The position numbers and the translations under genes are program-made. From positions 1-59,697 of the IMG/VR virus record IMGVR_UViG_3300030233_000116: DNA of 59,697 nucleotides. One strand, written 5' to 3'. Below the pieces are notes generated by a model. That model had not been told where the DNA came from and made no database searches. It saw only the letters and a list, made by a program, of their open reading frames with translations. This stretch comes from a virus. Its lineage: Duplodnaviria; Caudoviricetes. Of the stretch, positions 11,383-35,627 are shown one piece after another (position 1 is the first letter of the stretch; each line of letters begins with the position of its first letter).

Positions 11383-11557
11383 AAGCTTGGAGCGATTCGC
11401 GCGCCTGTTCCGCGAGTTCGAGACTGTCAAAAGTAAATCGGCGGATGGGTAGCGGCTCCCCGCGTTCCAACCGGAAGCCGGCAGGGTTGAAGGATTCATC
11501 CGGAATCCCCTCCTCGCCGACATAAAGCACCCACTGCGGGCGAACGATTATCTTCAT
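11315..11557 (-). CDS. Hypothetical protein
   Basis: Start overlaps the portal stop (11554-11557). Confidence 0.45.
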   Translation of the reverse strand: MKIIVRPQWVLYVGEEGIPDESFNPAGFRLERGEPLPIRRFTFDSLELAEQARESLQAYVDKHSHRSNSRRHKGTSRTAG

Positions 11558-13800: not shown

Positions 13801-13826
13801 GGTATGCGGATACGCTACGACAACTT

Positions 13827-19800: not shown

Positions 19801-22800
19801 TAACGGTTCGCCCACCAGCCAGCCAGCCTGAGGTTGTCAGTAACGAGGTTTTGCACCTCTGCCGTACGATCGGAAAGGTCGAGGGTGAGTTGGTCGGGAT
19901 CGATTGTGCGCGCCCCCATCGCTTGCTCTTCTGCCCCCGCTGTTTCCTCCGGCCCCTGAAGATCGCGTTCCAACTGTAAAAACTCTGCCTGCTTGGCCGC
20001 GTATTCCTCTTCCTTCGGCCATTGCTGTTCGGATGCTTGTTGCAGAGGTGTGATTTGCTCTTGCTGCTTCTCAATGCGCGCACGAATCGAATTCACCTTT
20101 GCCTCGCCAGCACGCGCAGAACGCACGACTGAGTTGAGCAACCCTTCAGCCGTTTTAGGGGACCCATTATCCCACATCTCACCCGATGGCGTCTTGATTT
20201 CAGCCTCAAAAGTCACTCGCAACTCCTCAAACGATGCCAAGGCGCCGCGAGCAACCAGGGTGACAGGCACCTCATTTATGCGAAAGCTGATCTCTGCGGT
20301 ATTGTCTGCATTTGCAATCTGGACCGCCTTTTTGCGAAGCTGGTCCATGATATTGCCAAGCGCCTCGACGGCTTCCTTTCGATCCGTGAATACACCGTTT
20401 TCGCCGAAATCGTAAGTAACCGAGTCGCCCTCGAACTGAGCCGACATCTTATCCGAAATGGCTTCATACTGTTTCGCCAGCGCCGTATCCGAGCGGATAG
20501 AGGATTCCAAGTACCATAACCTTTTGCGAGACTCCGCAACCTCATTCAAAAATCCGCGCCGTTCGCCATCCAGCTCGGCGATCTCGCCTTCCAGGTCTGC
20601 CAAGCGCAAAACCCTGGTATCGCCGGAAAGCTGGGCGACCTGCTGGCGCATATTCATCACCACCTCGGACGCCGCATCGTCAAACTCGCGGCCTGAGACG
20701 TTGCCCTTCAATACCTGATGCACGAACGCCTGTTTGGCGGCCATCATATCGTAGATGGCAACGTCCATCGTGCTCTCCACGCCATAACGGATGTTGCGAA
20801 CCGCGAAATCGCTATCGTAATCCGGATTCGCCGAACCATCCTTCAGCTTGGCGCGCGTGAAGATATTCCCCTGCCGGATGATTCGACCATCGCGTTGCTC
20901 AAGCATGGCTGGCGTCATTGAGCGCGGCGGATCAAGATGATGTGCCGCCACCAACCGCTCCTGCATGTTCACTCCGACCCCGAGCTTTTCCGTGGATCCA
21001 AGTATCACCCGGACTTCGCCGCTGTTCACCTTCTCAAACAATGCTTCCCGGCGTTTGTCAGTATTGTGCTCGTGGATGATGGCGATTTGGTTTTCCGGGA
21101 TTCCTCGCTTGATGAGCTTGTCCCGAATGTCGCGATATAGATTGAATCCGCCGCCTGAAAATTCGGCATCCTCATCTGGACCTTCTTTTTCCTGCTTGTC
21201 GGGGTCGGTCTCACCGTCGGCTTCTTCCTCAATCGAAAGCGAGCCGCCAACAAAGGCATCAAGCGTATTAGTGTTGATCGGCCGAAACCGATCCAAGAAC
21301 ACGACCTGCGCGCCCCTCCGATATTCGTTCTCCTGATGAATCTTCGCAATTTCCTCAACCGCGCGATTAACCTTCGACCCTGGTTCATCCAGAGCATCCT
21401 GCCGCACGAGCCGCGGATCTACAGACGCCGCCATCCCAACCTGCATCGTTACGATTGGGACCGCGCGGGCAGCCTCTTTCTCATCGCTGCTACCGCTCTT
21501 CATCACCCGCTCAAACTCCGCGCCAATCTCCATGATCCAATCATTAATGCGGGACACCGCGGGAGTCTGGGGAACGACCTGTAAATCCGGCAGGTTGCGA
21601 CCATCAGAATTTCGCATCTTGGGAACCTTCAGCCCAAGTTCTTCATTCCCCATCTTCACGTCGAATCCTGAGCGGATCATGGCGACCAACTCGGCGCCGT
21701 TGGTGAATCGATTAAAGCGACTCACACGCTTCCATGCGCCCGACCAAGTGCGCTCCAGCTTCGTGTTTAATCGTCCGAAGGTGTGAGCAAATTCATCGAA
21801 AGTGTTAATACCAAAATCTTCCAGCACCGATGGCGTGGCCAGTTTCAACATGATGTATGCTTCGGCCACACTATTGGTAATCGGGGTCCCGGTGGCCAGG
21901 ATCACATTGCGCCCATTGTTGCGGTCCTGAATGTATTTCGTCTTCATCTCCAGACCCATCGCGCGTTGGCTTTCGTCGTTCGGAATGCCCTTGATGCGCT
22001 GCATGTTGGTGATGATCGACGCCTTCTTGTAAGCGTGCGCCTCATCAATGAAAAGGGCGTCTACGCCGGTCGATTCAAAGTCGATCACGTCATCCCCTCG
22101 CTTTTCGAGACCGTCCATCATCCGGCGAAGCTTGCCTTCCATCCGCTTTTTCGCCTTTTGCAACTGCTTGGTGGTCGGCGAATCTTTCCCCTCACTCAAG
22201 CGCATGCGATTGATGGCCTCGCTCAATTCCGCAAGCTTATCGCTGAAAAAGCGCCGAATGGTTTCCTTCGATGGCAAAATCCGATCGAACTGCGGTTGCG
22301 TGACGATCACCATGTCGTAATCGCCCGTGGCAATCTGCGAGATAAACCGAGCGCGACTCTTGGCGTTGAACGTTTTTTCCGTGGCGACCAAAACCTTTGC
22401 TGCCGGGTAAGCCTGCATGACGGATGCCGCAAACTGGCCGATGGTCGCCTTTTGCACCACGATCATTGGCTTTCGCGCCAAGCCGAGCCGCTTCATTTCC
22501 ATCGCTGCGACGATTTGCGAGAATGTTTTGCCAGAACCAACCCCATGCGCCATGACCGCCTTACCCTCCTGCAAAATTCGGGCAATCGCGGATCGGCGAT
22601 GCCCATTCATCCAGACGACATTAGAAAGCCCTGGAATATTGTGGCGCGATTGATCGCCGTCCCTCACCAGATAGTCGCCACTGTAAACAGGGGCGACCAC
22701 GCTGTTCATGACGTCGTTATATTCCTGCTCGACCACTTCTTGCACGGACACCCCCTCGACCTGAACGGCAGTGGTCTTGATCCAACTTTCGAAACGCCGC

Positions 22801-25800
22801 TCCATGTCGGCCATCTTCGCTTTCGCGGCCTGCGTGGCAGGAAAATCCGTCTCTGTCTTCGTTTTGCCGCCGCCAAGACTGACAGTGGTCGTGATTTGTG
22901 GCGAAGTGCCCTTCAACGCATGGGTGAGAAGTTCCGCCCCGCTCAGTTTTCCGCTTTTCCAATCGACGGAATTTCCGCTGGCTAGCGGATTGCTCACAGT
23001 CACAACGTGCGTGTTGGCAGCCGCCACGTAGGAAACCTTAGTTTTGGAGCCGAGGAGATCGGTTGCAAACGCGGAAAGGACGCGCTCAGGAATCCAGCGT
23101 GACGCCAGGGAAAAGTAAATATCCTTTAATGGGACCGTCGGAGGAATCACCCCCTCCAACGCAGCAATATTCGCCCGGTATCGAGAATCTGTTTCCGCCG
23201 CCGCACGAGCGGCCCGAAGACGTTTGCGAACATTTGAACTGAGGTATCGCTCGGCGATTTCCAAACGTCCCGTTGCGGGATCGAGATAGGCGCGCCCGGT
23301 TTCGACAATGCGGTCTTCCGCTTCGCGTTTCGAAATTCCCAGCATATTGGCCACGGAATCAGCATCGACTGATCCCTCAAAGGCCATCAAGATGTTGATG
23401 GCATCGTTGATATTCTCCGCTTTCTCCGGCTTCGAGACCGGTTCCCGGACTCGTTTCGAGAAAATATCCGCCTTGCGCCACGCTTTTTTGACCTTCTTCG
23501 TTCGCTGGTCATAGCGGTCAAACTCTTCTTCGAGCGATTGAAGCAGCGGATATTCCGGATCGTCCTCGAGGAATGCCGCTTTTTCGAGGTGCCGATATTT
23601 CTTTGTAAGGGTGCCGTTGCGCGCGATGAAGCGGTCATAAGCCGCGTTGAGCCGTCGACGCATGGCGTCTAAATCGGCGATGGAAATATCCTGATCGACT
23701 TCACCCGCGATCAGCTCGCGGGCCGCGTCCCGAACCATCATCCAATCATCGGCAATCACCTCCCGATCGCGCCGTTCCTTGTCGGTGATTGGCTCGGTAT
23801 GTTTGTCGCCGTAGTTCTTTTGCGTCAGCCAACTCGCTGGCTCCAATCGACCTTCAACGACTTGAAAAAACTGGCCATCCTTTTGGACGTAACTTCCAGG
23901 CTTGTCGCCGGACGCCGCAACCTGGCTTCGCTGCACCGGCCGGGCGTCGCCTCGCTTAAAAATGTCTTTCGGGAATCGCTCGACGACCGCCGTCAACTCT
24001 GCCCCCGTGTCCTGCCCCGGCTTTGCCACCAAGGCATAATCGCCAGCGGAATACATGGTGCCTTCGAGGGAGTGGCGCCCAAGCGCCATCTCCGGGTTGG
24101 CCGCATAGTATTCGTTGACGAAAATGTCCGCCATCTGCCCTTCGACCTCGGCCTCCCCGACTTTATCCCGGCTGATCCACGAAGCGCCCTCAAACGGTTT
24201 TCCGTCTTTCTTGCGCATCACGATAATGTCCGTGGTGACTTCTGTGCCTGCATTGGCCGCAAATGCGTTGTTTGGCAGCCGGACGGCCCCCACGAGATCG
24301 GCTTTTTCCGCCAGCAACCGACGCACCTTAGCATCGCTCTTGTCCATCGTGCCGTCAGAGGTGATGAAGATCACCAACCCCCCAGGTCGCGTCATGTCCA
24401 GGCCGCGGGCAAAAAAGTAGTCGTGAATGAGCAAGTCGGGGTAATCCTTCGCACCTGGCACCCGGTAGTCACCAAAAGGCACATTTGAAACCACAAGATC
24501 CATGGAAGCCGGAGGGATCGCCGCCCGCTCAAACCCAGTGACTTGAACCTCGGCTTGCGGGTAGAGCTTCGCAAAGATGCGGCCCGAAAGGTTGTCCAGC
24601 TCAACACCAGTCAATGCGCTTTGCTCGGCGATAGACTCAGGCATGCGCCCGAAGAAATGACCGACACCACCGGCCGGTTCAAGCACATCACCCCCACGGA
24701 AGCCCAACCGCTCCGCAATCGACCAGACACCATCAATGACGCGCGGATCGGTGAAGTGCGCGTTGAGTGTGGACGCCGCTGCAGACTCGTATTCTTCCTC
24801 CGAAAGCAATTCGCGAAGCCGAGCGTTCTGCTTTGCGTAGGCAGGTTTTTTCTCGTTGAAATACTCTCCAGCCCACCCCCATCCGGTGTATCTGGCAAGA
24901 ATGTCCTTTTCCGCTGGCCCCGGATTACGATTCTCGGATTCCAAGCGCCGAAGCAATTCGATTGCCTCAATATTGGCGTCGAGCTTGGCCGCATTGCCTC
25001 GAGGTGCAATTTGCACCCCGGCAGGAATCCGGTGATTACGATCGGCTGGCTTTAACTCAGCCGATCGGTCGGGTCTTCCGGTTCCTTGAGGCGGCGCTGA
25101 ATCTCCTCGCTCGCCATCTTTCTCAACTCCTTCTCGCTGGCCGCCGGGAATTGTGTTCGGAAGAACTCTACCAGTTTTTGCATTGGCGTTTTGTCCTTCT
25201 TCATTTGATTTGATATTACTCTCTGCTGTTGCAAAAGTAAACAGATCCTCTTGGACTGCCGCGGGAGCCTTGCGCAACTCCTGCTTGATTTTGGCCCGAA
25301 CCTTTGGCTTCGAAGCCTTTACTGCGGGTGGAAGTGTCTCCACCCAGTCGAACATGTCGGGCGTATTCGGATCTAGCCGCCGGGCGCCAAGGCTCTGAAC
25401 TTGGCCCGTGCCTCGGCTTCGACTTCCGCCGCGCGGGGATTCTGGTTTCCGAACCGCAGTTTCCCGATCGCCCGCTCGACCGCCGCTTCCTCGGCCGGGT
25501 CGATTTTCGGGGGTTCCCAATAATTCCCTTGGCTTTTCTGGTTGTTTGGCTCGCTCATCTACCAGATTATACGTCGCGCGGTCTTTAACATCAACCGATT
25601 CCCCGTCCTTTTGCGCAACCAATTTGGGGCCTTCGGTATTGTCGTAGAGCGCGCCTGTATCAGCCAATGCCAACAGGTTTTTGGCTCCGGCATTAAAGCT
25701 GGAATGCGCGGTGAAAAGCGCCTCATACGGCACCCATCGCCCCTTGCCTTTTGCTCGCAAAACAGCTCGCGTGATGGATTCGGCGGGATCAATCGTGACC

Positions 25801-28800
25801 CCTAGGAACTCAACGGCAAACCCGGCATTCTGCCACTGCTTGATCTTGCTGGCGGACTTTTCAAAGTTCGCCATCGTGCCATCGAAGATGATGTTATATC
25901 GCTCCCGGCGATTCTTATCGACCAATTTCAGTTCGAGCTTTTTCGCAATCCAACTCGATTCTTCATGCACCACGGCGGCCGCCCGGCTGTCTCCGGCTTG
26001 CACGATACGGTCATACTCCGGAATCAACTCCTTGATCTCATCGGCATTGATCTCGACTGGCTGTTGCTTAAATGGAGTCTTGCCCGCTTTGATGCGCGCC
26101 TTGAGCGTAGTGGTTTTCCCAGCGCCACCCCCGCCACCCATGGCCAGAACAACAGGCTTTTGCCCTTCCGGCACCGGCTTCCCACGGCTGATGAAATATT
26201 GGATGACGGCCTCGCGGAATTCATTCCGACTCACTTTTCCCTCGGGAAGCAGACCGGCAGCAACCAAGGGATGCTCGGCATCAACTTCAGCCTCATTGAG
26301 ATCCAAGGTCTCCTGCAACAGGGGGGCGCCGTCCTGCAGCGTGCGCGGCGGAACAGGCAACCCATTTTCAAACTCCCATCCTTCAGACTCGGGAAACGCC
26401 TCGCGGATCCGTGGATCCACAGGACCGGCCAATCGCCGGGTGGCCAGCGTGTGAACAGCCCTCGTGAACAACGCACCAGCATATTGCGAATCTTCCACCA
26501 CCGACCGGAGCAACCCTTCCAGCGCCCTCACCCCATTAACAGACCCCAAAGCCCGTCCGATCCGCTCGACCATCTCAGGCACCTCGCCCTCGAACAAATC
26601 TTGCTGGCCGATGAACTCCTGGAAGGAACCCTTCCCGCCGTCCCGCTTCCATCGCACATATTGCGACACCGCAGGAGCAATCGCCGAATCGATGAAGTCA
26701 GGTTGCGTCTCTCGGATTTGCGCCAGCAGTCCGGATTGGCGAACGAGTCCCTTCGTGAAATTCACCAGCCCGGAATCCTGCGCGTCCTCGATCAGTTGCG
26801 TGAGCGTGATCCCGCGCCCGGCCTGGCGACCTTCCGCGGTATCAGCACCGAGCACATAGGCGAGCATCGCCCGCCGGACATCCTCGTAAAGGTCCGGTGT
26901 GGCCGATCCGTCCCGGGTAAGCCGGTTGCGCAGACCCATGGAGTCAATCACCTCCAGAATCGCTTCCCCGCTCGGACCGTCCTCGAGGAAATTGCCGTCC
27001 TCATCGAACTCGATGGCTGCCAGCACGCCGGGATTCTGCCGGAGCACCCCGGCCCGCTTGATGGCCTCTTCCGGCCGGCTCATCTCATCGGGATTCGCAT
27101 CCCGAACATAGGCCAGCAGTGGATCGGGCTCGGATGCGTAATCGCCGAAATCGACGATTTCAGCGCCCAAAGCCGGCATTTCCATCGCTTCAGCCTGTTG
27201 CGCGGCATCCTCCATGCCGAGGTGTCGGAGGTATCGAGCCACGAACGAGCGCTGCGCGCTCCGGGCCGCAGGCGTGCCGGCCGCACCGTAGATGACGCCC
27301 AACGCCGCCTCGCGACCGTGCCCGGACCGAATGACATCCTTCCCGCCCTCCGAAGTGACCACGATCGGGCCATGCTCGATGCTGGTGGCCGGTATTGATT
27401 TCTCAGGCTTCCACCGCTGGGCGAGATCGAGAATTTGCGCCCGGGATTGCACTCGGTCGCGTTCGCGGGGTTGGTATTTAGTCCCCTTGGAATTTTTGAC
27501 GGTCGCCAGGTCGATCGGCTTCAAGCGAAGCTTCACCTTCTTCGTCCTCGCACTGTTCTCGCTCCAATAGGTGCCGTCCTTTGCCACAGTCCCGAGCGGC
27601 TGGAACGCGGGGGCGGAATCTTCCGCGCCCCGCTGTTCGCTTACTTCCGTTTCCCGCCGCATCCCTTCTTTTTGTGACCTTTGCCTTTCATTGGACTCAC
27701 CTCCTTTCTGAGTGGTGGCAGGATCGGGATTCGAACCCGAGTCTTCAGGGTATGGGCCTGACGTGGTGACCTCTCCACCATCCTGCGTCAAAATTTCTTC
27801 CATCCGGGCGATCATCGCCTGGATCTCCGGCACATCCCCCGCAGCCCGGAGCGATGCAATCACGCTCTCGATCCATCGGTTGATCGCCTCGATGATCCGG
27901 CGGAACCCGGTCTCAGTGATCTCGCCGTCGGCACGCGCCTGCACCAACTGCCGCTTGAACTCGCCCAAAAGGTTCTCAAGCGGCATGCGAACATTGTTCA
28001 CCTGGAGATCGCCCCTGGCCGCCATGTCGAGAAGCGCAAGCGCTTTCTCCTGCATGGTCTCACCGGGAATCGCCTCGATCGCGGCATCAATGTCGGCCTG
28101 CAATCGGTCGCCAGCGAAGTAACTTGCCGCCGAATTGACCAATGCACGTGACACTTTCGCGCCATTGGCACCATTGATGGCCTGCCGGATGCCGCCCGAC
28201 TCTTTTGCACGCTTCCCGGCAACGAAATCCTCAAACGAGCCTTCCCGCCCGCCGCTTTCCCATTCCTCGCGAAAAGCAACCTGTTCGGCCGCATGAGCGA
28301 TCTCCTCGCTCACCACACCCTCGAACCACTGGTCTGCGGCATCCTCACCCAATGCCTGAGCCACAATCCCGCGTTGCCGATCGATTTGCCCCTCATCGAC
28401 ATGAATCCGGGGGCCGTCCTCTCCAAAGGCCACGCCCATGGCATTGCCTGCACCGCCAGGAACGGGCCCCTCGACGACCTGAACGCCCGCGCTCAGTCGA
28501 TTCCGAGAATTGATGTCGGCAACCGCTTCTGTAACGCGCGATAGTCGGCCAGCAGGCGTTCGAATGTCGGCTCCGGATCGCCCTCGGCGAAAGGTCGCGG
28601 TCCCATCGGTAGCCGATCCAGCAGCGACGGATCCCGAATCCGCTCGAGATCCTGGATCCGATTGCGAAGCTCCTGCACCGCTTGCCACCGATCCGGGTGC
28701 GCTCGCAGCTTCTCCGCGCTCATTTGACTGACTTCCATCAGCATCACCATACGCATCTTCCGCCATCCGGTAAACCCCGCGGACCATTCCGATATTCTGC

Positions 28801-31800
28801 CGGGTGACCTGCTGGCGTGCGGTCTCCTCGTCCTTTGCGCGGACCTGCACCGGCTCGCGTCCGTCGACATCGACCTCGAACAGCGCCAGATTTTCCGATC
28901 CTGGCGCTGGGGGAGGGGAATCAACTTCCGTTGATGCTTCTTCAACGAAAGTTGATGGGTCGGGCCGCAAAGGAATCCGAAGCGCCTTCTCGCGCGCTTC
29001 GCTCTCACTCATGCGAATGAGGCGACCGGAAGCTGGAGCGATCTCGCGCAACCGGTCGAGCTGGCCCTCGGTGAGAATCGTCATGCCCTCGACCACTTCC
29101 ATGCGCGGTGTGCCATCGGGTAATGGCGCCGATACCGCCGCGCGCTCCCGGGCATCCAGTCGCTCCAATGGAGTGCCGGCAAGAATCTTCAGTGCCCCCC
29201 TGGCCGCCAATCGATCGGCCTCGGCCTGCGCGGGGTCCATCTCAGGTGGTGGCGCCCATTTTGCCGCTTGGGCGTTGGCAGCCGCCACGAATTCGGGTGG
29301 CGCCGAGGATACCGGACGACCACCCTTTGCTTGAATCTGCTGGTCCAAAGCAACCGCCGCGCCATCCAAGCGAGCCAGTGTTGCATCCTCCATCCCGCGT
29401 TCCGCGGCCTGCTCCTGCATCCGGGAGATTTCCGATCGTTTCGCCATCAAGGCATCGACCGAATCGTCTGGAGCGATTCGCATGGACTCAATTCGACCGC
29501 GAAGGCTTTGATTCTGGTAGCCTTCGACGCCACCCTGCGCCCCTCCGACAACGCCCCCAGCCAAACCACCCAAGGCAGCGGATTGCGCCAACCGCTCCCA
29601 CGCCCCCTCGAACGCCGCCGCCTGATCTCGGAATCCGGCCTCCAGAAGCATGGAAGTTAATTCCTGACCCATTTCCGGCAACGCTTCGCTCCCGGCCCCC
29701 AAGGAAGCACGTCGCACGAACTGCGAAAGCACTCCGCGCCCACCAGGATTGCGCGTCAAAAATTGACCACCCGGAATTTTGTCCATCGCCCCGCCAATGA
29801 CCCCCATCAGCACGCCCTCGGATGTCGCCAAAGCCTTGGCCTCCAATTCCGACGCACCCGCTTCCCGGTGGTATTCCATGGCGTCATTGTATTGGTTGCC
29901 GGCCATCTTCGAGCCGGTCAACGCCATGAAGGTGACCGGAGCGGCCGGGCCGGTCAGTGACGCCAAGCCAAGGTCGATTCCCATCTCGATCATGACCGGA
30001 GCACCCTCAGCCAACAACCAACGAGTCAGGCGACCCGCATCCCAGGAATCGGCATCGGTAAGCTTGAAATTCTGCAATTCCGCGCTGGCTTGATTCCCGG
30101 CCTGCAGGTCGTTCGCCATCTGGCGCACCGCCTGATTCTGCGCCTCCGCTGATGTCCGCCCAAAAATGATGCGTTCGCCGAAATTTTGCGCCCATTGCCC
30201 GGGGTTCAAATTCGACGCCATCTCATTGGCGCCAGCCACACCGCTGGCAATCCGAGGCAGCATCCGGCCAAACACGGAGCGATCCACTTCCTCCCACAGT
30301 CCAATGTTCTCGTTTTTCTCCCGCCATTTCTGAAGCTTGCCATCCTTCCATGCCCGCTCCATCTCAAGGAATGTCTCGCGTTGCGCCTTCGGTAGCTGCC
30401 GCAGCACCTCCCGCCGCTCATCGCCTTTGAGTTCGTAATTCAGGAGTCGTGCCCGGTCCTGCAGCCCCGAGAACTCCTCATTCACCTCCGCCTGGCGTTG
30501 CTCGATCTCTTTCTGCAGCGCCGACTGAGCAGCCATGCGCGCCTCAAGATCCTCGATCGCCTCGATCTCCGCCATGCGCGCCTCAGCATCCGCATCAATC
30601 GCGTCCAGCTTCTCCGCAATCGGTCGGGTCGCCTCATTACCCCGCAACTCCTCCCGAGCCTGCTTCGCCCGCTCTTCGGCCAGGCGTCGACTTTCTTCCG
30701 CTACGGCATTTGCCTGAGCCTGCCCCTGGTCAAACGCCGCCGCGCGTTCCCGTAATGCCTCGACCTCAGCATTGTGGTTCGCCCGCTCCTCCGCGGTCAT
30801 CCCCTGTGTGGCCCGCTCGGCCAATCGCGCGGCCTCGGCCTCGATGGCTTCCACCTCGGCGACCGTCTGTTGCGCGTTCTCGACCTGGCGCTGACTCTGC
30901 TCCTCTGGAGATTCCTCCAATCGAGCCTGAGCCTGCTCCGCGATCCGCCGTCGCATATACCCGCCGGGCCCCTCCTTCTCCAGAGCAAGCAACTCCTGCT
31001 CGAGCCGGTAATCTTCTTCTTCCAACGCCCGTCGCGCTTCATCCCCTGCAAATCGCGCATCGATCTCTTCCAGCCGCGCCTTGCGGATCCTCTCATCCTC
31101 CTGCCATGCAGCCATGGCCGCCGCGTCTTCCTGCGGCTTCGAACCACCGAACAATCCGCGTTTCGGCTCAGGCTTAGGCTTCGGGGTCGCCCAATTTTCC
31201 CGCTCCATGGTCAGCTCTTCGCGTTCCTGGTCAGAAAGCACCTTCGGAGCGTCGGGTGCGCCTTTCGCCACCCTAATCTCCTTACGCCGCATCTCGCGAT
31301 CCCGCTTCTCGCGTGCATGCAGGAACTTCGCGCTCGCAATCCGACGCTGCGGATTGCCGGAGGTCAATGCGACTTCCGGATCAATGACTTCCCATTCCGA
31401 ATTCTTGTTCTGTTTATAAAGATTGCGGTCGTTCGGGTCGTTCGGGTTCGGCCCAATCTTCGCGTTGCGATCGGGATCCACCCGTTTCACATCACCGGTG
31501 GCCGTGCGATCCATCCGGAACGCCCCTTTTTCGTCCCATTTCAGTTCACCCTTGCGCTCTTCGTACAAAGGATTCCCCTCGACATCCCGCTCGATCAGGA
31601 TGTTCCCCAAAGCATCTTTCCGATACCGCACCCCTTGTTCCTGTAGCCCGGCCTCGTGTTGCGCCTTCTCAAGCTTCGCGCGCTCCGCTTCGTATCGCTG
31701 GGATTCCCGCTGAAATTGCTCCTGTTGCCGCTGGACGCCTTCGTTGATGTCCTGCTTGGCCTCCATGAAGCGTCCGGCATCCTGCTGGATGGCCTGCAGC

Positions 31801-32012
31801 CGATCTTTCCGGTTTCGAGCCGTCAGAAGCCCGGATTGCATCATGACAGCCCGATTTGCCTCGGACTGCTGCTGTTCCCGCACCTGATTCCAATCCGGTT
31901 CCGCCGGGCGTTCCGGCATCTCAATGTCGGCAACGAAATCCCGCGGCTCTTCAGGAGCAGGGGAAACCGGCACGCCTTGCGCCGGGCGCACCCCGTGTGC
32001 TTGGCGCTTCAT
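13827..32012 (-). CDS. Giant polyvalent DarB-like virion/ejection protein (6061 aa): coiled-coil/Gly-rich N-term, degenerate zincin, ParB-like, Zeta-toxin P-loop kinase, N6-adenine MTase, SNF2 helicase, sigma70, ART-like, LPD38-like C-term
   Basis: Motifs: YQPRER/SGHGR (~27300-27480); GGGGGAGKT/INADEIKE/HEESS/IFDGT (~25650-26150); LEPAGGVG/NVPFG (~24470-24690); AHGVGSGKT/DEAH/TGTP/QRDGRIIRQGN (~20860-22560); NLRL/DDILQ/LVKA and region-4 HTH (~19370-19850); YHGT (~17550). Confidence 0.9.
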   Translation of the reverse strand: MKRQAHGVRPAQGVPVSPAPEEPRDFVADIEMPERPAEPDWNQVREQQQSEANRAVMMQSGLLTARNRKDRLQAIQQDAGRFMEAKQDINEGVQRQQEQFQRESQRYEAERAKLEKAQHEAGLQEQGVRYRKDALGNILIERDVEGNPLYEERKGELKWDEKGAFRMDRTATGDVKRVDPDRNAKIGPNPNDPNDRNLYKQNKNSEWEVIDPEVALTSGNPQRRIASAKFLHAREKRDREMRRKEIRVAKGAPDAPKVLSDQEREELTMERENWATPKPKPEPKRGLFGGSKPQEDAAAMAAWQEDERIRKARLEEIDARFAGDEARRALEEEDYRLEQELLALEKEGPGGYMRRRIAEQAQARLEESPEEQSQRQVENAQQTVAEVEAIEAEAARLAERATQGMTAEERANHNAEVEALRERAAAFDQGQAQANAVAEESRRLAEERAKQAREELRGNEATRPIAEKLDAIDADAEARMAEIEAIEDLEARMAAQSALQKEIEQRQAEVNEEFSGLQDRARLLNYELKGDERREVLRQLPKAQRETFLEMERAWKDGKLQKWREKNENIGLWEEVDRSVFGRMLPRIASGVAGANEMASNLNPGQWAQNFGERIIFGRTSAEAQNQAVRQMANDLQAGNQASAELQNFKLTDADSWDAGRLTRWLLAEGAPVMIEMGIDLGLASLTGPAAPVTFMALTGSKMAGNQYNDAMEYHREAGASELEAKALATSEGVLMGVIGGAMDKIPGGQFLTRNPGGRGVLSQFVRRASLGAGSEALPEMGQELTSMLLEAGFRDQAAAFEGAWERLAQSAALGGLAGGVVGGAQGGVEGYQNQSLRGRIESMRIAPDDSVDALMAKRSEISRMQEQAAERGMEDATLARLDGAAVALDQQIQAKGGRPVSSAPPEFVAAANAQAAKWAPPPEMDPAQAEADRLAARGALKILAGTPLERLDARERAAVSAPLPDGTPRMEVVEGMTILTEGQLDRLREIAPASGRLIRMSESEAREKALRIPLRPDPSTFVEEASTEVDSPPPAPGSENLALFEVDVDGREPVQVRAKDEETARQQVTRQNIGMVRGVYRMAEDAYGDADGSQSNERGEAASAPGSVASGAGASQSDPGSRADSGSVAAGSATDGTATFRRGRSGADIRTPAGRLSRVTEAVADINSRNRLSAGVQVVEGPVPGGAGNAMGVAFGEDGPRIHVDEGQIDRQRGIVAQALGEDAADQWFEGVVSEEIAHAAEQVAFREEWESGGREGSFEDFVAGKRAKESGGIRQAINGANGAKVSRALVNSAASYFAGDRLQADIDAAIEAIPGETMQEKALALLDMAARGDLQVNNVRMPLENLLGEFKRQLVQARADGEITETGFRRIIEAINRWIESVIASLRAAGDVPEIQAMIARMEEILTQDGGEVTTSGPYPEDSGSNPDPATTQKGGESNERQRSQKEGMRRETEVSEQRGAEDSAPAFQPLGTVAKDGTYWSENSARTKKVKLRLKPIDLATVKNSKGTKYQPRERDRVQSRAQILDLAQRWKPEKSIPATSIEHGPIVVTSEGGKDVIRSGHGREAALGVIYGAAGTPAARSAQRSFVARYLRHLGMEDAAQQAEAMEMPALGAEIVDFGDYASEPDPLLAYVRDANPDEMSRPEEAIKRAGVLRQNPGVLAAIEFDEDGNFLEDGPSGEAILEVIDSMGLRNRLTRDGSATPDLYEDVRRAMLAYVLGADTAEGRQAGRGITLTQLIEDAQDSGLVNFTKGLVRQSGLLAQIRETQPDFIDSAIAPAVSQYVRWKRDGGKGSFQEFIGQQDLFEGEVPEMVERIGRALGSVNGVRALEGLLRSVVEDSQYAGALFTRAVHTLATRRLAGPVDPRIREAFPESEGWEFENGLPVPPRTLQDGAPLLQETLDLNEAEVDAEHPLVAAGLLPEGKVSRNEFREAVIQYFISRGKPVPEGQKPVVLAMGGGGGAGKTTTLKARIKAGKTPFKQQPVEINADEIKELIPEYDRIVQAGDSRAAAVVHEESSWIAKKLELKLVDKNRRERYNIIFDGTMANFEKSASKIKQWQNAGFAVEFLGVTIDPAESITRAVLRAKGKGRWVPYEALFTAHSSFNAGAKNLLALADTGALYDNTEGPKLVAQKDGESVDVKDRATYNLVDERAKQPEKPRELLGTPENRPGRGSGGRAGDRETAVRKPESPRGGSRSRGTGQVQSLGARRLDPNTPDMFDWVETLPPAVKASKPKVRAKIKQELRKAPAAVQEDLFTFATAESNIKSNEEGQNANAKTGRVLPNTIPGGQREGVEKDGERGDSAPPQGTGRPDRSAELKPADRNHRIPAGVQIAPRGNAAKLDANIEAIELLRRLESENRNPGPAEKDILARYTGWGWAGEYFNEKKPAYAKQNARLRELLSEEEYESAAASTLNAHFTDPRVIDGVWSIAERLGFRGGDVLEPAGGVGHFFGRMPESIAEQSALTGVELDNLSGRIFAKLYPQAEVQVTGFERAAIPPASMDLVVSNVPFGDYRVPGAKDYPDLLIHDYFFARGLDMTRPGGLVIFITSDGTMDKSDAKVRRLLAEKADLVGAVRLPNNAFAANAGTEVTTDIIVMRKKDGKPFEGASWISRDKVGEAEVEGQMADIFVNEYYAANPEMALGRHSLEGTMYSAGDYALVAKPGQDTGAELTAVVERFPKDIFKRGDARPVQRSQVAASGDKPGSYVQKDGQFFQVVEGRLEPASWLTQKNYGDKHTEPITDKERRDREVIADDWMMVRDAARELIAGEVDQDISIADLDAMRRRLNAAYDRFIARNGTLTKKYRHLEKAAFLEDDPEYPLLQSLEEEFDRYDQRTKKVKKAWRKADIFSKRVREPVSKPEKAENINDAINILMAFEGSVDADSVANMLGISKREAEDRIVETGRAYLDPATGRLEIAERYLSSNVRKRLRAARAAAETDSRYRANIAALEGVIPPTVPLKDIYFSLASRWIPERVLSAFATDLLGSKTKVSYVAAANTHVVTVSNPLASGNSVDWKSGKLSGAELLTHALKGTSPQITTTVSLGGGKTKTETDFPATQAAKAKMADMERRFESWIKTTAVQVEGVSVQEVVEQEYNDVMNSVVAPVYSGDYLVRDGDQSRHNIPGLSNVVWMNGHRRSAIARILQEGKAVMAHGVGSGKTFSQIVAAMEMKRLGLARKPMIVVQKATIGQFAASVMQAYPAAKVLVATEKTFNAKSRARFISQIATGDYDMVIVTQPQFDRILPSKETIRRFFSDKLAELSEAINRMRLSEGKDSPTTKQLQKAKKRMEGKLRRMMDGLEKRGDDVIDFESTGVDALFIDEAHAYKKASIITNMQRIKGIPNDESQRAMGLEMKTKYIQDRNNGRNVILATGTPITNSVAEAYIMLKLATPSVLEDFGINTFDEFAHTFGRLNTKLERTWSGAWKRVSRFNRFTNGAELVAMIRSGFDVKMGNEELGLKVPKMRNSDGRNLPDLQVVPQTPAVSRINDWIMEIGAEFERVMKSGSSDEKEAARAVPIVTMQVGMAASVDPRLVRQDALDEPGSKVNRAVEEIAKIHQENEYRRGAQVVFLDRFRPINTNTLDAFVGGSLSIEEEADGETDPDKQEKEGPDEDAEFSGGGFNLYRDIRDKLIKRGIPENQIAIIHEHNTDKRREALFEKVNSGEVRVILGSTEKLGVGVNMQERLVAAHHLDPPRSMTPAMLEQRDGRIIRQGNIFTRAKLKDGSANPDYDSDFAVRNIRYGVESTMDVAIYDMMAAKQAFVHQVLKGNVSGREFDDAASEVVMNMRQQVAQLSGDTRVLRLADLEGEIAELDGERRGFLNEVAESRKRLWYLESSIRSDTALAKQYEAISDKMSAQFEGDSVTYDFGENGVFTDRKEAVEALGNIMDQLRKKAVQIANADNTAEISFRINEVPVTLVARGALASFEELRVTFEAEIKTPSGEMWDNGSPKTAEGLLNSVVRSARAGEAKVNSIRARIEKQQEQITPLQQASEQQWPKEEEYAAKQAEFLQLERDLQGPEETAGAEEQAMGARTIDPDQLTLDLSDRTAEVQNLVTDNLRLAGWWANRYRNLGEYDDILQSARLALVKAAEGYNPESGPFAAYANRTISNALNSEYRRQSRRPRMSASLDEPITDDGETLAEVIGEDENVRETAAQGDIRGILRAAVQKLPDRPRAMVENLLSGKTAAETARELEVSPQYVSKILSNALGVLRSRLEGQGIDARAALGARAISPELSQETEDVLWRRIGEIEDLQGDSRRRAFAINDRLGDEASMDARPLPELDWRQYVDDVPDAWPEWANPETTIDDLSGEERERVREAALEEIRASEREWEGKRRSALEDLRALADEVAPISGALGARSIEMEIEAAMEGKSMFGAMAALIENANLSKDQKSRYRSIKRILDSDIQDPDDWPKSTQGHAIWKQVEKALDSKEFAEVGGLSLTEIEENQPDSNLNADQTKAWNEVRAQVMRMYEAFYGDLKSARKNLQALAAEVMTRPEERMEAEDKRLKGEFLRGLRDGGFSEADTLAIGSRSISPQYGAFDAATAAKNKEVFRERFEAMKPTVGIGKLVAGWQSPDGRFVDTGEHHHFFSDGYGLILGNPGALGYVRIAKDYKDGKTVYYQGAPNRTQLKALKDAAIEEGLEIEHDRTPLATRKIEASPKAIQDEILAVAEGDTGSGDDVIELLHPDNYSLKELRKIQRENESDIEMMQEELDEYNALSKEDQELYEPNTDFESIDNIRQQNREIDKVIEMRAKYTPKSIDNAVDDYIEKHWIGTRTITDEDAEYLAAVERGDMETAQRMVDEAARAAGYTIKGYHGTLNGGFKRFNLNLLSDDAEKGVVWFADTREGAERFLQRYRGKPKDFNDTLALYDPVTQTRIERGSTPQVIDAWIRPGKVFDQTNLTEEDIRWLTNRTIMGLPITRETIERYAGSVDGQLLKMLLGQDFASLQDDYQTFKFNLAYGTEQVGHEIGITDPNAVKSADPVTYDDKGNVIPLSQRFNPQSDSILYARTLTPEGDKALERIMAAISEPEVNAMVEKAKGETSGQRTVGNPDRGFSALGPEVMGVDEVYGSKLVREKEADWNEAGRRMAAENPGGVIEMALERGMAGGTLNPEETKAVQVVVAEEMSKPLTPERRRILTGLVWAYRQTGTEAGRQLASRKDPFMSPAERHREFLAKAIFTPPSKVRKQIEKADQAEKQRLLDAESARIKAIEKALNAMGITFDMIFGGEVELILKGSAIVKNILSGFTSQDSKIVRALQGGAKSFEVIGKEMGATAKEVEAVRDRYADAVNTRYRDTVRKLLERGVSPGEVAKYIDQTGVALGAAALGNREVSDADVDAAMAQVLEAMGIAPKTEQGKRKTVRRRVPKRRPLLQVPQTPVSDAPVGPTPGAYPEDQTRLELNEDQAARNRTRMPRSDAPAAPEAGPQQKLPLEYENREIMVRFPIDDAQQVVRVARTAQAASGNPFDMAIEYWINGILSGPQTHIVNIAGNFANTAWDMTVQRGMEAVMNLMVKDQKGAQFGEFKHLLAGLRPGLAKGWKMAVKAWDAESDFFESEVLGGQVELFEDFDKAGGVQPAIKGRTGRIVRIPGRLLLFMDSLFKFTIGRMETGAMAFRIGKQKGLEGKKLEEFIADEVNTPGSMSWQYAVDKAVDMTFQTPLKNADEGGNVMEQLARNAQDLRRKAKILSFIIPFVRTPYNIFATGIRKTPLGSIPMTYRLLQAGFFKFRDGKPVLTSHPQLVRDMAEQTIAWVGTLMLLGMAEGDEDDDNKLILISGSRPSNSALADMQARTSGGPYSIRIGGRNGVTVSYGRLEPFATILGTVVDAARMTKSGGGSQEKTSQFFSYMVGQTQDKTFTAGIGGLMETIQNFSDPDRADFAASRFRSSFLSGLVPNIIRQPLRNMDEFQRDYRTAQVYYDMLPIPQFAAPRIDQVTGEPVRKDGNAASRLLIPWTREMEGSEQVDVMLRNWNRENPSLAWAPPRPSNKISRNGEQIELDADEYQELVALSAKYAGIRLRSVLNSLNTRNPTEDDFERVKKAFEQGRALARREMLLRRR
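25052..25204 (-). CDS. Nested +1-frame small protein (50 aa, MKKDKTPMQKLVEFF...)
   Basis: TTTACT(25241-36)-17-TAATAT(25218-13), 8 nt before the ATG; amphipathic helical product. Confidence 0.6.
   Translation of the reverse strand: MKKDKTPMQKLVEFFRTQFPAASEKELRKMASEEIQRRLKEPEDPTDRLS
25373..25558 (-). CDS. Nested +1-frame small protein (61 aa) directly after the Zeta domain; candidate antitoxin
   Basis: TTGATG(25594-89)-17-TATAAT(25571-66), 7 nt before the ATG. Confidence 0.65.
   Translation of the reverse strand: MSEPNNQKSQGNYWEPPKIDPAEEAAVERAIGKLRFGNQNPRAAEVEAEARAKFRALAPGG
25566..25594 (-). promoter_or_regulatory. Internal sigma70 promoter inside the giant gene
   Basis: TTGATG-17-TATAAT. 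Confidence 0.7.
27641..27691 (-). CDS. Nested 16-aa basic peptide MKGKGHKKKGCGGKRK
   Basis: GAAAGGAGGTGA Shine-Dalgarno (27708-27697), 5 nt before the ATG; immediately 3' of the nested tRNA. Confidence 0.65.
   Translation of the reverse strand: MKGKGHKKKGCGGKRK
27713..27787 (-). tRNA. tRNA-Met(CAT), initiator-like, embedded on the sense strand of the giant CDS
   Basis: CGCAGGA TG GTGG AGAGGTCA CCAC G TCAGG CCCATAC CCTGA AGAC TCGGG TTCGAAT CCCGA TCCTGCC A CCA; D, anticodon and T stems fully paired, C1xC72 mismatch, encoded CCA. Confidence 0.85.
28493..28738 (-). CDS. Nested +1-frame protein (81 aa, MEVSQMSAEKLRAHPDRW...)
   Basis: TTTACC(28774-69)-17-TATGGT(28751-46), 7 nt before the ATG; product looks helical while the host frame there is low-complexity. 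Confidence 0.6.
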   Translation of the reverse strand: MEVSQMSAEKLRAHPDRWQAVQELRNRIQDLERIRDPSLLDRLPMGPRPFAEGDPEPTFERLLADYRALQKRLPTSILGID

Positions 32013-33785: not shown

Positions 33786-35627
33786 TCAGCTAAAAGTCGC
33801 ATCTCTTCCCATGCCCTCCTCCAGCCCTCGCAGATCCCGAGGCAGGTAATTCGGGCGGTTCTCATGCACAAACACCGTCGCATGCTCGATGTTCGCCAAC
33901 CCAATCCCCAGGCTCATCACCTGGTCATCGTGCTTGCCTTGCGCGGCCTCGATCTTCCCGTTCGTATTTACTACCATCGTTCCCAGTTCTTTTCGCAACC
34001 ACGGACAAGGCACGTCAATCCCGCTGCCAATCACATCCCATTCCCGGATCGCCTTCTCAATCGCCGAAATCACAATCGGTCGTGTCGCAACCGAGGTTCG
34101 CCATCCCAACTGATCGGTGAAACGCTCTTCCTTCCGATCGAACACTCTGCGCATCGCCACATTGCCGCCAGCATCCTTCAAGTAATTCACCACCGACAAC
34201 CCGGGCCCGTCCATCTCCACATAGATGATGCATCGCCCATAGTATTCGCTCATCATCAATACCTGCTCAGCCAATACATCATGCTCCCATCGGCATGCAG
34301 GTTCGCCCCGTATCGTTTGAGCCAAACGACACACCACTCGAGGACGCACCCATTCCCCGCGTTCATCAAAGTATCCTGCCCGCAAAACCAAAGGACCGTG
34401 ATGGTCGGGATCTTTCCCGCTGGTCTGGCTCGAACCGGTCATCACGTCCAGCGGAATCAGATACCGGCATCCATGCCTTGGCTTCTCCCACATCCACACG
34501 AACGCCTCTGTCTCAAGCCCAACCTTCACAAACCCCGCTCCATCAGTCGGGCGCGCCTTCGAAAAATTTCCATAGTCCGGTGTCGCGTTATCCCTCGCCA
34601 ATATCTTCAGCCCAGCCCGATTGAATGCCTGCCGACCTGACCGCCGAAACGCCCGCTCCCATGTCGAAGGATAATCCTCCTCGAACACATCCGGATCCCG
34701 CTGGCATTCCTCCGCGATCGCCCATCGCCGCCATGCCAACTGTTCCCACACGTCAAAATCCTCAACCGCCTTGCCCAACCGCAACCCCTGCGGCCCTTCA
34801 TTCCCAAAGTCATCGATCAAATCCTGTTCCCCAAAATACCACGGTTGCGCATCGATCGATTCCTGTATCTCCATCTTCTCGTTGGCCGACAACCGAAATG
34901 CCGAATCCGAAAACTCATACCACGCGCTGAAAAGCCGGACGGCCGGCAACCCCTTTGTTTTCCCAGCCAATACCAACCGCTGAAATTCATCAGCATCAAT
35001 CGCCCCACACCATCTTTCGTAATAGTCACCGGCAGCTCCCCTGGCAGTCGACTCCAGAATAATAATGGATCCCGCAACCGGTGGACACGTCTTCAATGCC
35101 CCCGACAGAATGTCCGCAGCATTCGCAACCCCTTCTTCCGCCCACCTCGCAACCTCTGTCCCGATAATAATCTGATACGTCCCCGCACGCCCAGCTTCCC
35201 CATTCTTCGCCGTTGCCTGATCGACCATCGATCCATTCGGAAACCTCGCGAACTTCATCAGCACTTCCGCGCGCTCGCCCCCAGGCGGCATGCTGTCTTC
35301 CTTCGCGTAAACCTTCATCATCCGCATAAGCTTGTCCCCTTGCGAATGGTCGCCCCCGATAACAAGGCCCACCTTCTCGCCCTGCATGCACTTGTCATAC
35401 GTCAGCCAGACCGAAAAGGTCGAAGATCCCTTCTGCCGAGGCTTCAGGTTCAAGATGAAACACGGAACCCCATGCTCCTCGCAGAATGCCACATGATCCC
35501 GCATTCGCCGTTGCATGATGTTCAGTCGCGGGCGTATCAAATTCCGCTTCTTATCGTAAATCTTAGCCCGCGTCTCAAAAGTGACGCCAGGGTCAGTAAG
35601 AATCTTCTTTATTCTGGATTGGGTCAT
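33786..35627 (-). CDS. terL: Terminase large subunit
   Basis: LKPRQKGSST Walker A, TEVARW, ILESTARG coupling motif, nuclease DVMTG and HDDQVMS. Confidence 0.92.
   Translation of the reverse strand: MTQSRIKKILTDPGVTFETRAKIYDKKRNLIRPRLNIMQRRMRDHVAFCEEHGVPCFILNLKPRQKGSSTFSVWLTYDKCMQGEKVGLVIGGDHSQGDKLMRMMKVYAKEDSMPPGGERAEVLMKFARFPNGSMVDQATAKNGEAGRAGTYQIIIGTEVARWAEEGVANAADILSGALKTCPPVAGSIIILESTARGAAGDYYERWCGAIDADEFQRLVLAGKTKGLPAVRLFSAWYEFSDSAFRLSANEKMEIQESIDAQPWYFGEQDLIDDFGNEGPQGLRLGKAVEDFDVWEQLAWRRWAIAEECQRDPDVFEEDYPSTWERAFRRSGRQAFNRAGLKILARDNATPDYGNFSKARPTDGAGFVKVGLETEAFVWMWEKPRHGCRYLIPLDVMTGSSQTSGKDPDHHGPLVLRAGYFDERGEWVRPRVVCRLAQTIRGEPACRWEHDVLAEQVLMMSEYYGRCIIYVEMDGPGLSVVNYLKDAGGNVAMRRVFDRKEERFTDQLGWRTSVATRPIVISAIEKAIREWDVIGSGIDVPCPWLRKELGTMVVNTNGKIEAAQGKHDDQVMSLGIGLANIEHATVFVHENRPNYLPRDLRGLEEGMGRDATFS

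Follow-up and report, generated by a model that had tools for sequence, protein, structure and literature searches.

A tRNA, a strong Shine-Dalgarno sequence and a 16-codon open reading frame nested in the giant gene of a tailed phage: a possible ribosome-loading cassette

The window analysed here is the complete IMG/VR virus record IMGVR_UViG_3300030233_000116, 59,697 bp from a Caudoviricetes phage, with an estimated completeness of 98%. On its minus strand, an uninterrupted open reading frame (ORF) of 6,061 codons contains a tRNA-Met gene, followed within a few nucleotides by a long Shine-Dalgarno (SD) sequence, a 16-codon ORF in another frame (micro-ORF), and a GC-rich hairpin (Table 1). 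Re-reading the minus strand returned exactly the letters and the coordinates (27641-27708) that the original prediction, made from the sequence alone, had given for the SD and the micro-ORF. Tentatively, and with less than even confidence, our analysis favours a cassette-borne ribosome-binding site that acts as a 5′ stabiliser or ribosome-reloading site, similar to the sequences known as STAB-SD, with the encoded peptide as a by-product.

Table 1. Features of the post-tRNA site and of the gene that encloses it. Positions are those of the window.
Feature	Position	Strand	Remarks
Giant open frame	13827-32012	-	6,061 codons; encloses all other parts; polyvalent / DarB-like
tRNA-Met(CAT) with encoded CCA	27787-27713	-	ARAGORN; Rfam RF00005, 57.3 bits over 27787-27716
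Spacer CTCA between CCA and SD	27712-27709	-	Read from the sequence
SD run GAAAGGAGGTGA	27708-27697	-	4 nt 3′ of the CCA; single occurrence in the window
SD written with one extra nt, AGAAAGGAGGTGA	27697-27709	-	12-13-nt anti-SD complement, 4-5 nt past the CCA
Spacer GTCCA between SD and ATG	27696-27692	-	Read from the sequence
Micro-ORF, 16 codons, MKGKGHKKKGCGGKRK	27641-27691	-	ATG 27691-27689, TAA 27643-27641; +1 frame relative to the giant frame
C-AAA-AAG	27674-27668	-	In register with the micro-ORF frame; a -1 slip there would enter the giant frame
Giant-frame ATG inside the micro-ORF	27660-27662	-	19 nt upstream of the micro-ORF stop; start of the database 4,611-aa gene call
GC-rich hairpin right after the TAA	27600-27640	-	Extended structure 27664-27596

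The tRNA lies complete and on the same strand inside the giant ORF, where it occupies codons 1409-1433. Its length is 75 nt with the CCA, which equals 25 giant-frame codons, and 72 nt without it; both are multiples of three. The giant frame (frame 0) has no stop across 27791-27596. Frame 1, that of the micro-ORF, has stops at 27790 and 27643, and frame 2 at 27747, 27699, and 27690. Even the SD reads in frame 0 as QKGGES, a plausible Gly-rich linker, and the part downstream of the insert stays in the same frame as the part upstream of it. When we shuffled the sequence, a given frame was open in 10.9% of the 189-nt shuffles, and in 25.2% when only the 114 nt outside the tRNA were considered. Since frame 0 is the only open one, and just 10.9% of the shuffles are open in this way, its openness suggests selection for read-through.

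At the level of the SD, the claim that it is the strongest in this genome was confirmed. Measured against a generic 10-nt anti-SD motif (containing CCUCC, and possibly different from the host's own 16S), the 17 nt upstream of the micro-ORF give -15.9 kcal/mol, with the GGAGG core within a 12-13-nt purine run. This pair of SD and start ranks first among the 5,765 ATG, GTG, and TTG codons of both strands. The ATG is placed 5 nt past GGAGGTGA and 8 nt past GGAGG, which is the spacing of a canonical SD start. Starts at -11 kcal/mol or stronger number 29 of the 5,765, most of them inside ORFs, and two reach -15; among the first starts of 56 crudely chosen, non-overlapping ORFs, the best gives -12.5 kcal/mol. 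The 10-mer AAGGAGGTGA has one exact copy in the window and, allowing one mismatch, six matches against 3.1 expected, a number reached in 8 of 100 shuffles. On its own, the strength of the SD is within reach of chance and is not an outlier. Its position behind the tRNA is non-random, because the 40 nt behind the genome's single tRNA hold just two start codons and only 2 of the 5,765 starts reach -15; by this post-hoc arithmetic, the chance of such a start there is about 7e-4. The original prediction had also described a genome rich in coupled starts, and at least 12 same-strand ORF junctions do overlap by 1 or 4 nt.

The 3′ tail of the tRNA (CACC, in the 27697-27717 region of the minus strand) forms a weak hairpin with a GGUG in the SD when the minimum-energy fold is computed. 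Given this pairing, 3′ maturation of the tRNA would free the SD too. The whole 241-nt fold is not significant (z -1.27).

The gene that hosts these elements represents 30% of the genome. It is flanked on the minus strand by terminase (33789-35627) and portal (11557-13830) genes, in the order terminase, a 225-aa ORF, the giant gene, and portal across 11557-35627, and it overlaps both of its neighbours by 4 nt (32009-32012 and 13827-13830). The part downstream of 27662 matches the Pfam families ddrB-ParB, Zeta_toxin, SNF2-rel_dom, Helicase_C, and Sigma70_r2, and the 1,408 residues upstream of the insert gave no Pfam match. Judging by these modules and by relatives of 3,113-6,062 aa, the product is a polyvalent, DarB-like virion protein. 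In a public protein collection, the same gene is entered as a product of 4,611 aa with ATG 27662 as its start (P0002; 13830-27662, minus strand). Because the frame is open for 6,061 codons and the relatives are continuous, this call is probably an annotation cut at the tRNA, and ATG 27662 is probably not the real start.

For the relatives, a protein database search returned the window's own product (P0002) and two more proteins. P0003 (5,561 aa) presents 54% identity and a ParB-like region from residue 1999, and P0004 (3,113 aa) presents 40% identity and a ParB-like region from residue 1613. P0003 also matches the N-part of the giant protein (aa 120-541 against its 88-448, E 4e-22). Its DNA, locus L002, is a single open frame across all the 13,176 nt fetched, and no tRNA was found in those 13,176 nt or in the whole 57-kb record, which is 63% complete. 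An exhaustive HMMER search matched 22 proteins; the ParB-like match starts more than 200 residues in for 17 of the 21 that are not the window's own, and at least two of the remaining four are fragments.

The linker that precedes the ParB-like domain is continuous in P0003-P0007 but varies in length and composition, with about 110 residues in P0003. Neither a tRNA nor an internal SD-led ORF was found in the linker of the five relatives inspected at the junction, nor in the L002 DNA. From these comparisons, the giant gene is ancestrally continuous, and 63 codons that hold the tRNA, the SD, the micro-ORF, and the hairpin have here taken the place of its hypervariable linker. We found no cassette-bearing relative in a single-protein scan of viral contigs, an alignment scan of viral contigs returned one locus only (L002, without tRNA), and an alignment scan of metagenomes found no relatives. 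As a separate observation, a Glu-Glu-x-x-His module without any Pfam match lies just upstream of the ParB-like domain, both in the giant protein (about aa 1232-1241, within 27789-32012 of the minus strand) and in relatives: at about 1751-1758 in P0003, 1449-1454 and 2089-2096 in P0004, 80-86 in P0005, and 1493-1500 in P0007.

The tRNA, SD, micro-ORF, and hairpin probably form a foreign cassette of about 190 nt that looks intergenic and yet keeps the giant frame open. The codon log-odds of the giant frame are 12.6-18 per 20 codons up to 27783, lie only between 7.3 and -1.9 over 27782-27633, and rise again from about 27662. The GC content at third codon positions follows the same course, from 0.8-0.9 to 0.40-0.50 in the cassette and 0.70-0.85 after it. 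Both drops are consistent with a foreign composition. The hairpin occurs once in the window and ranks in the genome's top five 41-nt hairpins by stability (folding energy, dG, -26.9; z -5.19; 0 of 200 shuffles); for the extended structure, the values are dG -35.5, z -3.09, and 0 of 200 shuffles. In L002, the corresponding stretch does not stand out (z 0.16), and a pattern scan of viral contigs for the hairpin gave 0 matches. We considered flanking repeats as insertion scars and discarded them, as there are just short repeats, likely due to chance. One of them, a 12-nt inverted pair (27797-27786 and 27501-27490), has its second arm within the conserved ParB-like coding sequence. We also discarded a split ribosome-binding site, in which a hairpin would bring the SD near ATG 27662, since the fold forms only a 3-bp spacer hairpin.

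We looked for the origin of the cassette in several collections. Against phage records, blastn matched 53 nt of the tRNA to tRNA-Met in four Streptomyces-phage records (88.7% identity) and left the SD and the micro-ORF unmatched. A pattern of the 3′ half of the tRNA gave 0 matches in viral contigs; among the species genomes scanned, it matched only a Faecalibacter genome, at a place that is not a tRNA and gives no clue to donor or host. We then scanned 2.9 million viral contigs for a T-arm, a CCA, and the same 10-nt SD within 10 nt, a pattern that recovers the window itself. Three IMG/VR loci were retrieved (L004, L005, and L006), all in phage tRNA arrays, where the SDs head real ORFs of 80-97 aa, one of which looks HNH-like (its motifs were judged by eye). 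At L004 (583-660, plus strand), the same 10-nt SD comes after a tRNA-Gln, and then a mini-ORF of 4 codons, MLTI, whose stop overlaps a second SD leading a 91-aa ORF, a tandem start arrangement behind a tRNA. Thus, units of tRNA, SD, and small gene exist as possible donors; the actual donor was not found by phage blastn, viral-contig patterns, or species genomes.

These arrays bring in a different explanation, in which an SD and the opening codons of a small gene came along when the tRNA left a donor array, and neither serves a selected purpose here; the giant ORF would be read through, and any peptide would be noise. This would account equally well for an ATG out of frame with the giant ORF, for a micro-ORF frame without codon-usage signal, and for an SD, a peptide, and a hairpin that are not conserved. 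The existence of tRNA-SD-small-gene units in phage arrays, one of them HNH-like, is in line with it, as is T4 segB, described as lying between tRNA genes (PMC2988022). So is the open frame 0 across the cassette, which fits read-through as the only thing that matters. Nevertheless, the micro-ORF is not obviously truncated: with a perfect SD before it and a hairpin directly after its stop, it resembles a complete mini-cistron. Moreover, a processed tRNA would leave a ribosome-binding 12-13-nt complement at the 5′ end, whether selected or not. Overall, we regard an inert passenger as somewhat unlikely.

For the peptide itself, the original prediction proposed an abundant protamine-like product, and the results did not bear this out. 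A pattern of the SD plus the peptide gave 0 matches in the 2.9 million viral contigs (a control matches the window). The back-translated peptide alone also gave 0 matches there, a weak test at 16 aa, which is below protein-search length. Searching homologous loci for an SD followed by a Lys/Gly-rich micro-ORF, the check proposed with the claim, yielded none in L002 or in the viral-contig scans. In all, there is no counterpart in the single related DNA locus (0 of 1, L002), three viral-contig scans were empty, and codon usage gives no signal: in the two 20-codon windows that cover it, the micro-ORF frame has log-likelihood ratios of -0.3 and -4.7, although 16 codons are too few for a firm verdict. 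The richness in Lys and Gly comes from the purine-rich tract, and frame 0 of the same tract reads QKGGESNERQRSQKEGMRRETE, an equally charged linker.

Another reading takes the site as a real small gene, with a functional 16-aa Lys/Gly peptide that would bind or condense nucleic acids or bind ribosomes and would be made from a stable mini-mRNA with a 5′ SD and a 3′ hairpin. The layout is that of a complete mini-cistron, with the hairpin (z -5.19) immediately after the stop, and the other top hairpins of the genome (6527-6567, 38947-38987, and 52333-52373), read against the ORF tables, stand at gene boundaries. There is also the precedent of tpr on the tyrT transcript (PMC3141248). Against these points stand the 0 matches in two back-translated scans, the absence from L002, the lack of coding signal, and a composition explained by a purine tract that is equally charged in frame 0. 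We consider a functional peptide improbable, and nothing shows that the 16-aa peptide itself matters. The other role proposed for the micro-ORF, a ribosome roadblock tuning the output of the giant protein, found no direct support.

The original prediction missed three features in and around the micro-ORF: its +1 relation to the 6,061-codon frame, the presence within it of ATG 27662 and of the in-frame C-AAA-AAG, and the hairpin after its stop. They could be parts of a restart module, through which ribosomes that load at the SD would pass into the giant frame and produce a ParB-led protein of about 4,610-4,620 aa, independent of the 1,408-aa N-part. Two routes are conceivable: a -1 slip at C-AAA-AAG, giving MKGKGHKK-EGMRRE..., or termination and reinitiation at ATG 27662.

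For the slip, the giant frame is exactly -1 to the micro-ORF and offers about 4,610 further codons with Pfam domains, AAA-AAG is in the micro-ORF register, and an irregular 70-nt structure starts 4 nt past the site (dG -38.6; z -2.08; 5 of 200 shuffles; core z -5.19). However, the strong core hairpin is 28 nt away from the slip site, and C-AAA-AAG fails the canonical X-XXY-YYZ test, as only the AAA-AAG hexamer is present. This hexamer occurs in frame in 7.3% of micro-ORF-body shuffles, and AAAAAG occurs 10 times in the giant ORF. For reinitiation, the 5′ arm of the extended stem contains ATG 27662, so translation of the micro-ORF would expose it; the database call P0002 begins there, and the coding signal returns at about this position. 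Its SD duplex reaches only -3.4 kcal/mol, which is unusable, and the ParB-like domain is internal in 17 of 21 relatives. Considering also that the open frame across the cassette points to expression from upstream, a restart module seems unlikely.

A wider version joins all these outputs: a single locus would give rise to four products, namely the tRNA, the basic 16-aa peptide, the whole 6,061-aa protein, and a ParB-led isoform of about 4,600 aa made separately, with ratios set by a race between translation and tRNA processing. In this scheme, tRNA maturation would cut the 18-kb mRNA, the 13-nt complement would recapture ribosomes, and a fraction of them would re-enter the giant frame by the -1 slip or at ATG 27662. 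We rate this four-product scheme as doubtful.

Returning to the stabiliser and ribosome-reloading site that we favour, we propose the following course. A foreign tRNA cassette of about 190 nt would have taken the place of a hypervariable inter-domain linker, leaving the frame open. The giant protein would be made mainly by frame-0 read-through, with the tRNA read as 25 linker residues. When the tRNA is excised from the 18-kb transcript, a 14-kb 3′ fragment would result, starting about 4 nt before the 12-13-nt anti-SD complement. Ribosomes would load at this new 5′ end, read the 16-codon ORF, and terminate. Their recurrent presence would shield the fragment from 5′-end-dependent decay while the ribosomes further downstream finish about 4,600 codons. 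What the sequences show directly is the layout of the site, an open frame, a gene that relatives have in one piece, and a unique cassette; we infer the processing of the tRNA, the loading of ribosomes, and the protection of the fragment, as well as the timing. The block of RNase J1 at strong SDs in Bacillus would give a long SD placed there a purpose that does not depend on the frame. That 3′ processing of the tRNA could leave an mRNA headed by the SD was already part of the original prediction; this part stays plausible, with the complement about 4 nt from the end and the ATG ideally spaced, but the peptide as its purpose found no support.

Several observations weigh against this proposal. 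At the tRNA, the Rfam alignment presents a C1.C72 mismatch and a C instead of U at position 33, and the tRNA may be poorly processed or inactive. Between 26500 and 29000, we found no sigma-70 promoter and no canonical terminator except for one terminator-like site (29000-28979; 1.8 expected); with no sigma-70-type promoter nearby, a functional tRNA would need to be cut from the long transcript. The micro-ORF SD differs from STAB-SD in having a start codon. The SD, the peptide, and the hairpin have no counterpart in L002, the one relative with DNA. Given the open giant frame, the phage does not depend on a start in the cassette, that of the micro-ORF included, to express the downstream 4,600 codons. 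This phage uses SDs sparingly, as 38 of the 56 starts in the crude ORF set are weaker than -4 kcal/mol. Finally, a runner-up SD-like site reaches -15.1 kcal/mol on the plus strand (17505-17520; TTG 17518; 12 codons), antisense to the giant ORF. It is surely due to chance and serves as a chance control.

This last site raises the question of coincidence at the post-tRNA site as well, either because an SD-like run, an ATG, and a short ORF met by chance or because a 1-nt assembly error hides an in-frame start. Combinations of this kind are common, with 29 sites at -11 kcal/mol or stronger and the -15.1 one in antisense, and the SD reads as plausible linker (QKGGES) in frame 0. The position right after the only tRNA argues otherwise (about 7e-4, post hoc). 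If an indel brought ATG 27691 into frame, it would disrupt a 6,061-codon frame that is continuous in the relatives; the assembly-indel idea is less coherent than the open frame, and we rejected it. Chance or artefact is thus a very improbable account of the site.

The site matters beyond the peptide, since a tRNA with a ribosome-binding site, a mini-ORF, and a hairpin lies amid one of the longest kinds of phage gene and leaves its 6,061-codon frame intact. If the tRNA is processed, this is a natural experiment on translation and RNA maturation competing on a single transcript. It would show how the non-stop 5′ half is handled and how the 14-kb 3′ half survives, and also that the disordered linkers of polyvalent proteins are open to colonisation by structured-RNA cassettes. 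With an inert SD and micro-ORF, a lesson for annotation would remain: by cutting at the tRNA, pipelines arrive at a 4,611-aa protein whose ATG is probably not the true start.

The literature searched on nested tRNAs contained no mid-gene case with an SD-led mini-ORF of its own and gave selB-selC as one bacterial precedent. In Alphaproteobacteria, as described for selB-selC (Mukai 2021, PMC8124441), processing of the nested tRNA-Sec would, by prediction, leave an upstream mRNA without a stop and begin a new mRNA downstream; that case is itself purely bioinformatic, and its tRNA is at the gene's end. As in that description, the whole tRNA lies on the same strand within the ORF and would be translated, its length is a multiple of three (96 or 93 nt there; 75 or 72 here), and tRNA processing is predicted to split the mRNA. 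There, however, the tRNA encodes a C-terminal extension, the selB stop overlaps the next ORF start, and the arrangement is conserved across many taxa. Here, it lies mid-gene with about 4,650 codons to come, and a perfect SD, an ORF of 16 codons in another frame, and a hairpin come after it. The arrangement was seen in one phage genome, and no relative with the trait was found.

The units in the phage tRNA arrays (L004, L005, and L006) resemble our site in that no more than 10 nt separate the tRNA 3′ end from the same 10-nt SD, which precedes a start codon. They differ in being intergenic, in AT-richer genomes, and in leading ORFs of 80-97 aa, whereas ours is in frame inside a giant gene and leads 16 codons. 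Frameshift cassettes of the dnaX and insertion-sequence (IS) types, which work by a -1 shift, combine a run of Lys codons that closes with AAG, a stem-loop after it, and a -1 frame that stays open over a long distance. All three are present here, but the first heptamer position is C and not A, only 7 codons separate the site from the start, the core hairpin follows 28 nt later, and there is no conservation. Compared by layout alone, tpr on the tyrT transcript (PMC3141248) is also a small basic ORF downstream of a tRNA on the same transcript; it belongs to a chromosomal tRNA operon, as described there, and is not nested in a gene.

At the level of the whole gene, a 'massive DarB-like protein' has been described in Bcep22-like phages (PMC9144972). 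The giant protein is of this polyvalent, DarB-like kind, with thousands of residues in a phage of about 60 kb and with variable linkers between its ParB-like, zeta-kinase, SNF2-helicase, and sigma-like modules. It stands apart from the DarB-like relatives compared here (five at the junction, and the L002 DNA) in having a tRNA and an SD-led ORF in the linker.

Finally, the closest parallels for the SD come from Bacillus. An SD-like sequence at a processed 5′ end is reported to bind a 30S subunit that blocks RNase J1 (PMC4113751), and a 30S subunit or an initiating ribosome on a strong 5′ SD is reported to protect kilobases of RNA downstream, whatever the reading frame (PMC4113751; PMC5737220). 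Like the STAB-SD of cry3A and the strong SD of B. subtilis hbs in these accounts, ours is an extended SD-like sequence near a predicted processed 5′ end, 4 nt from the CCA. STAB-SD, as described, directs no initiation, whereas our site carries an ideally spaced ATG. A better fit than STAB-SD is the hbs-type variant, where the mRNA is protected by initiating ribosomes (PMC5737220).

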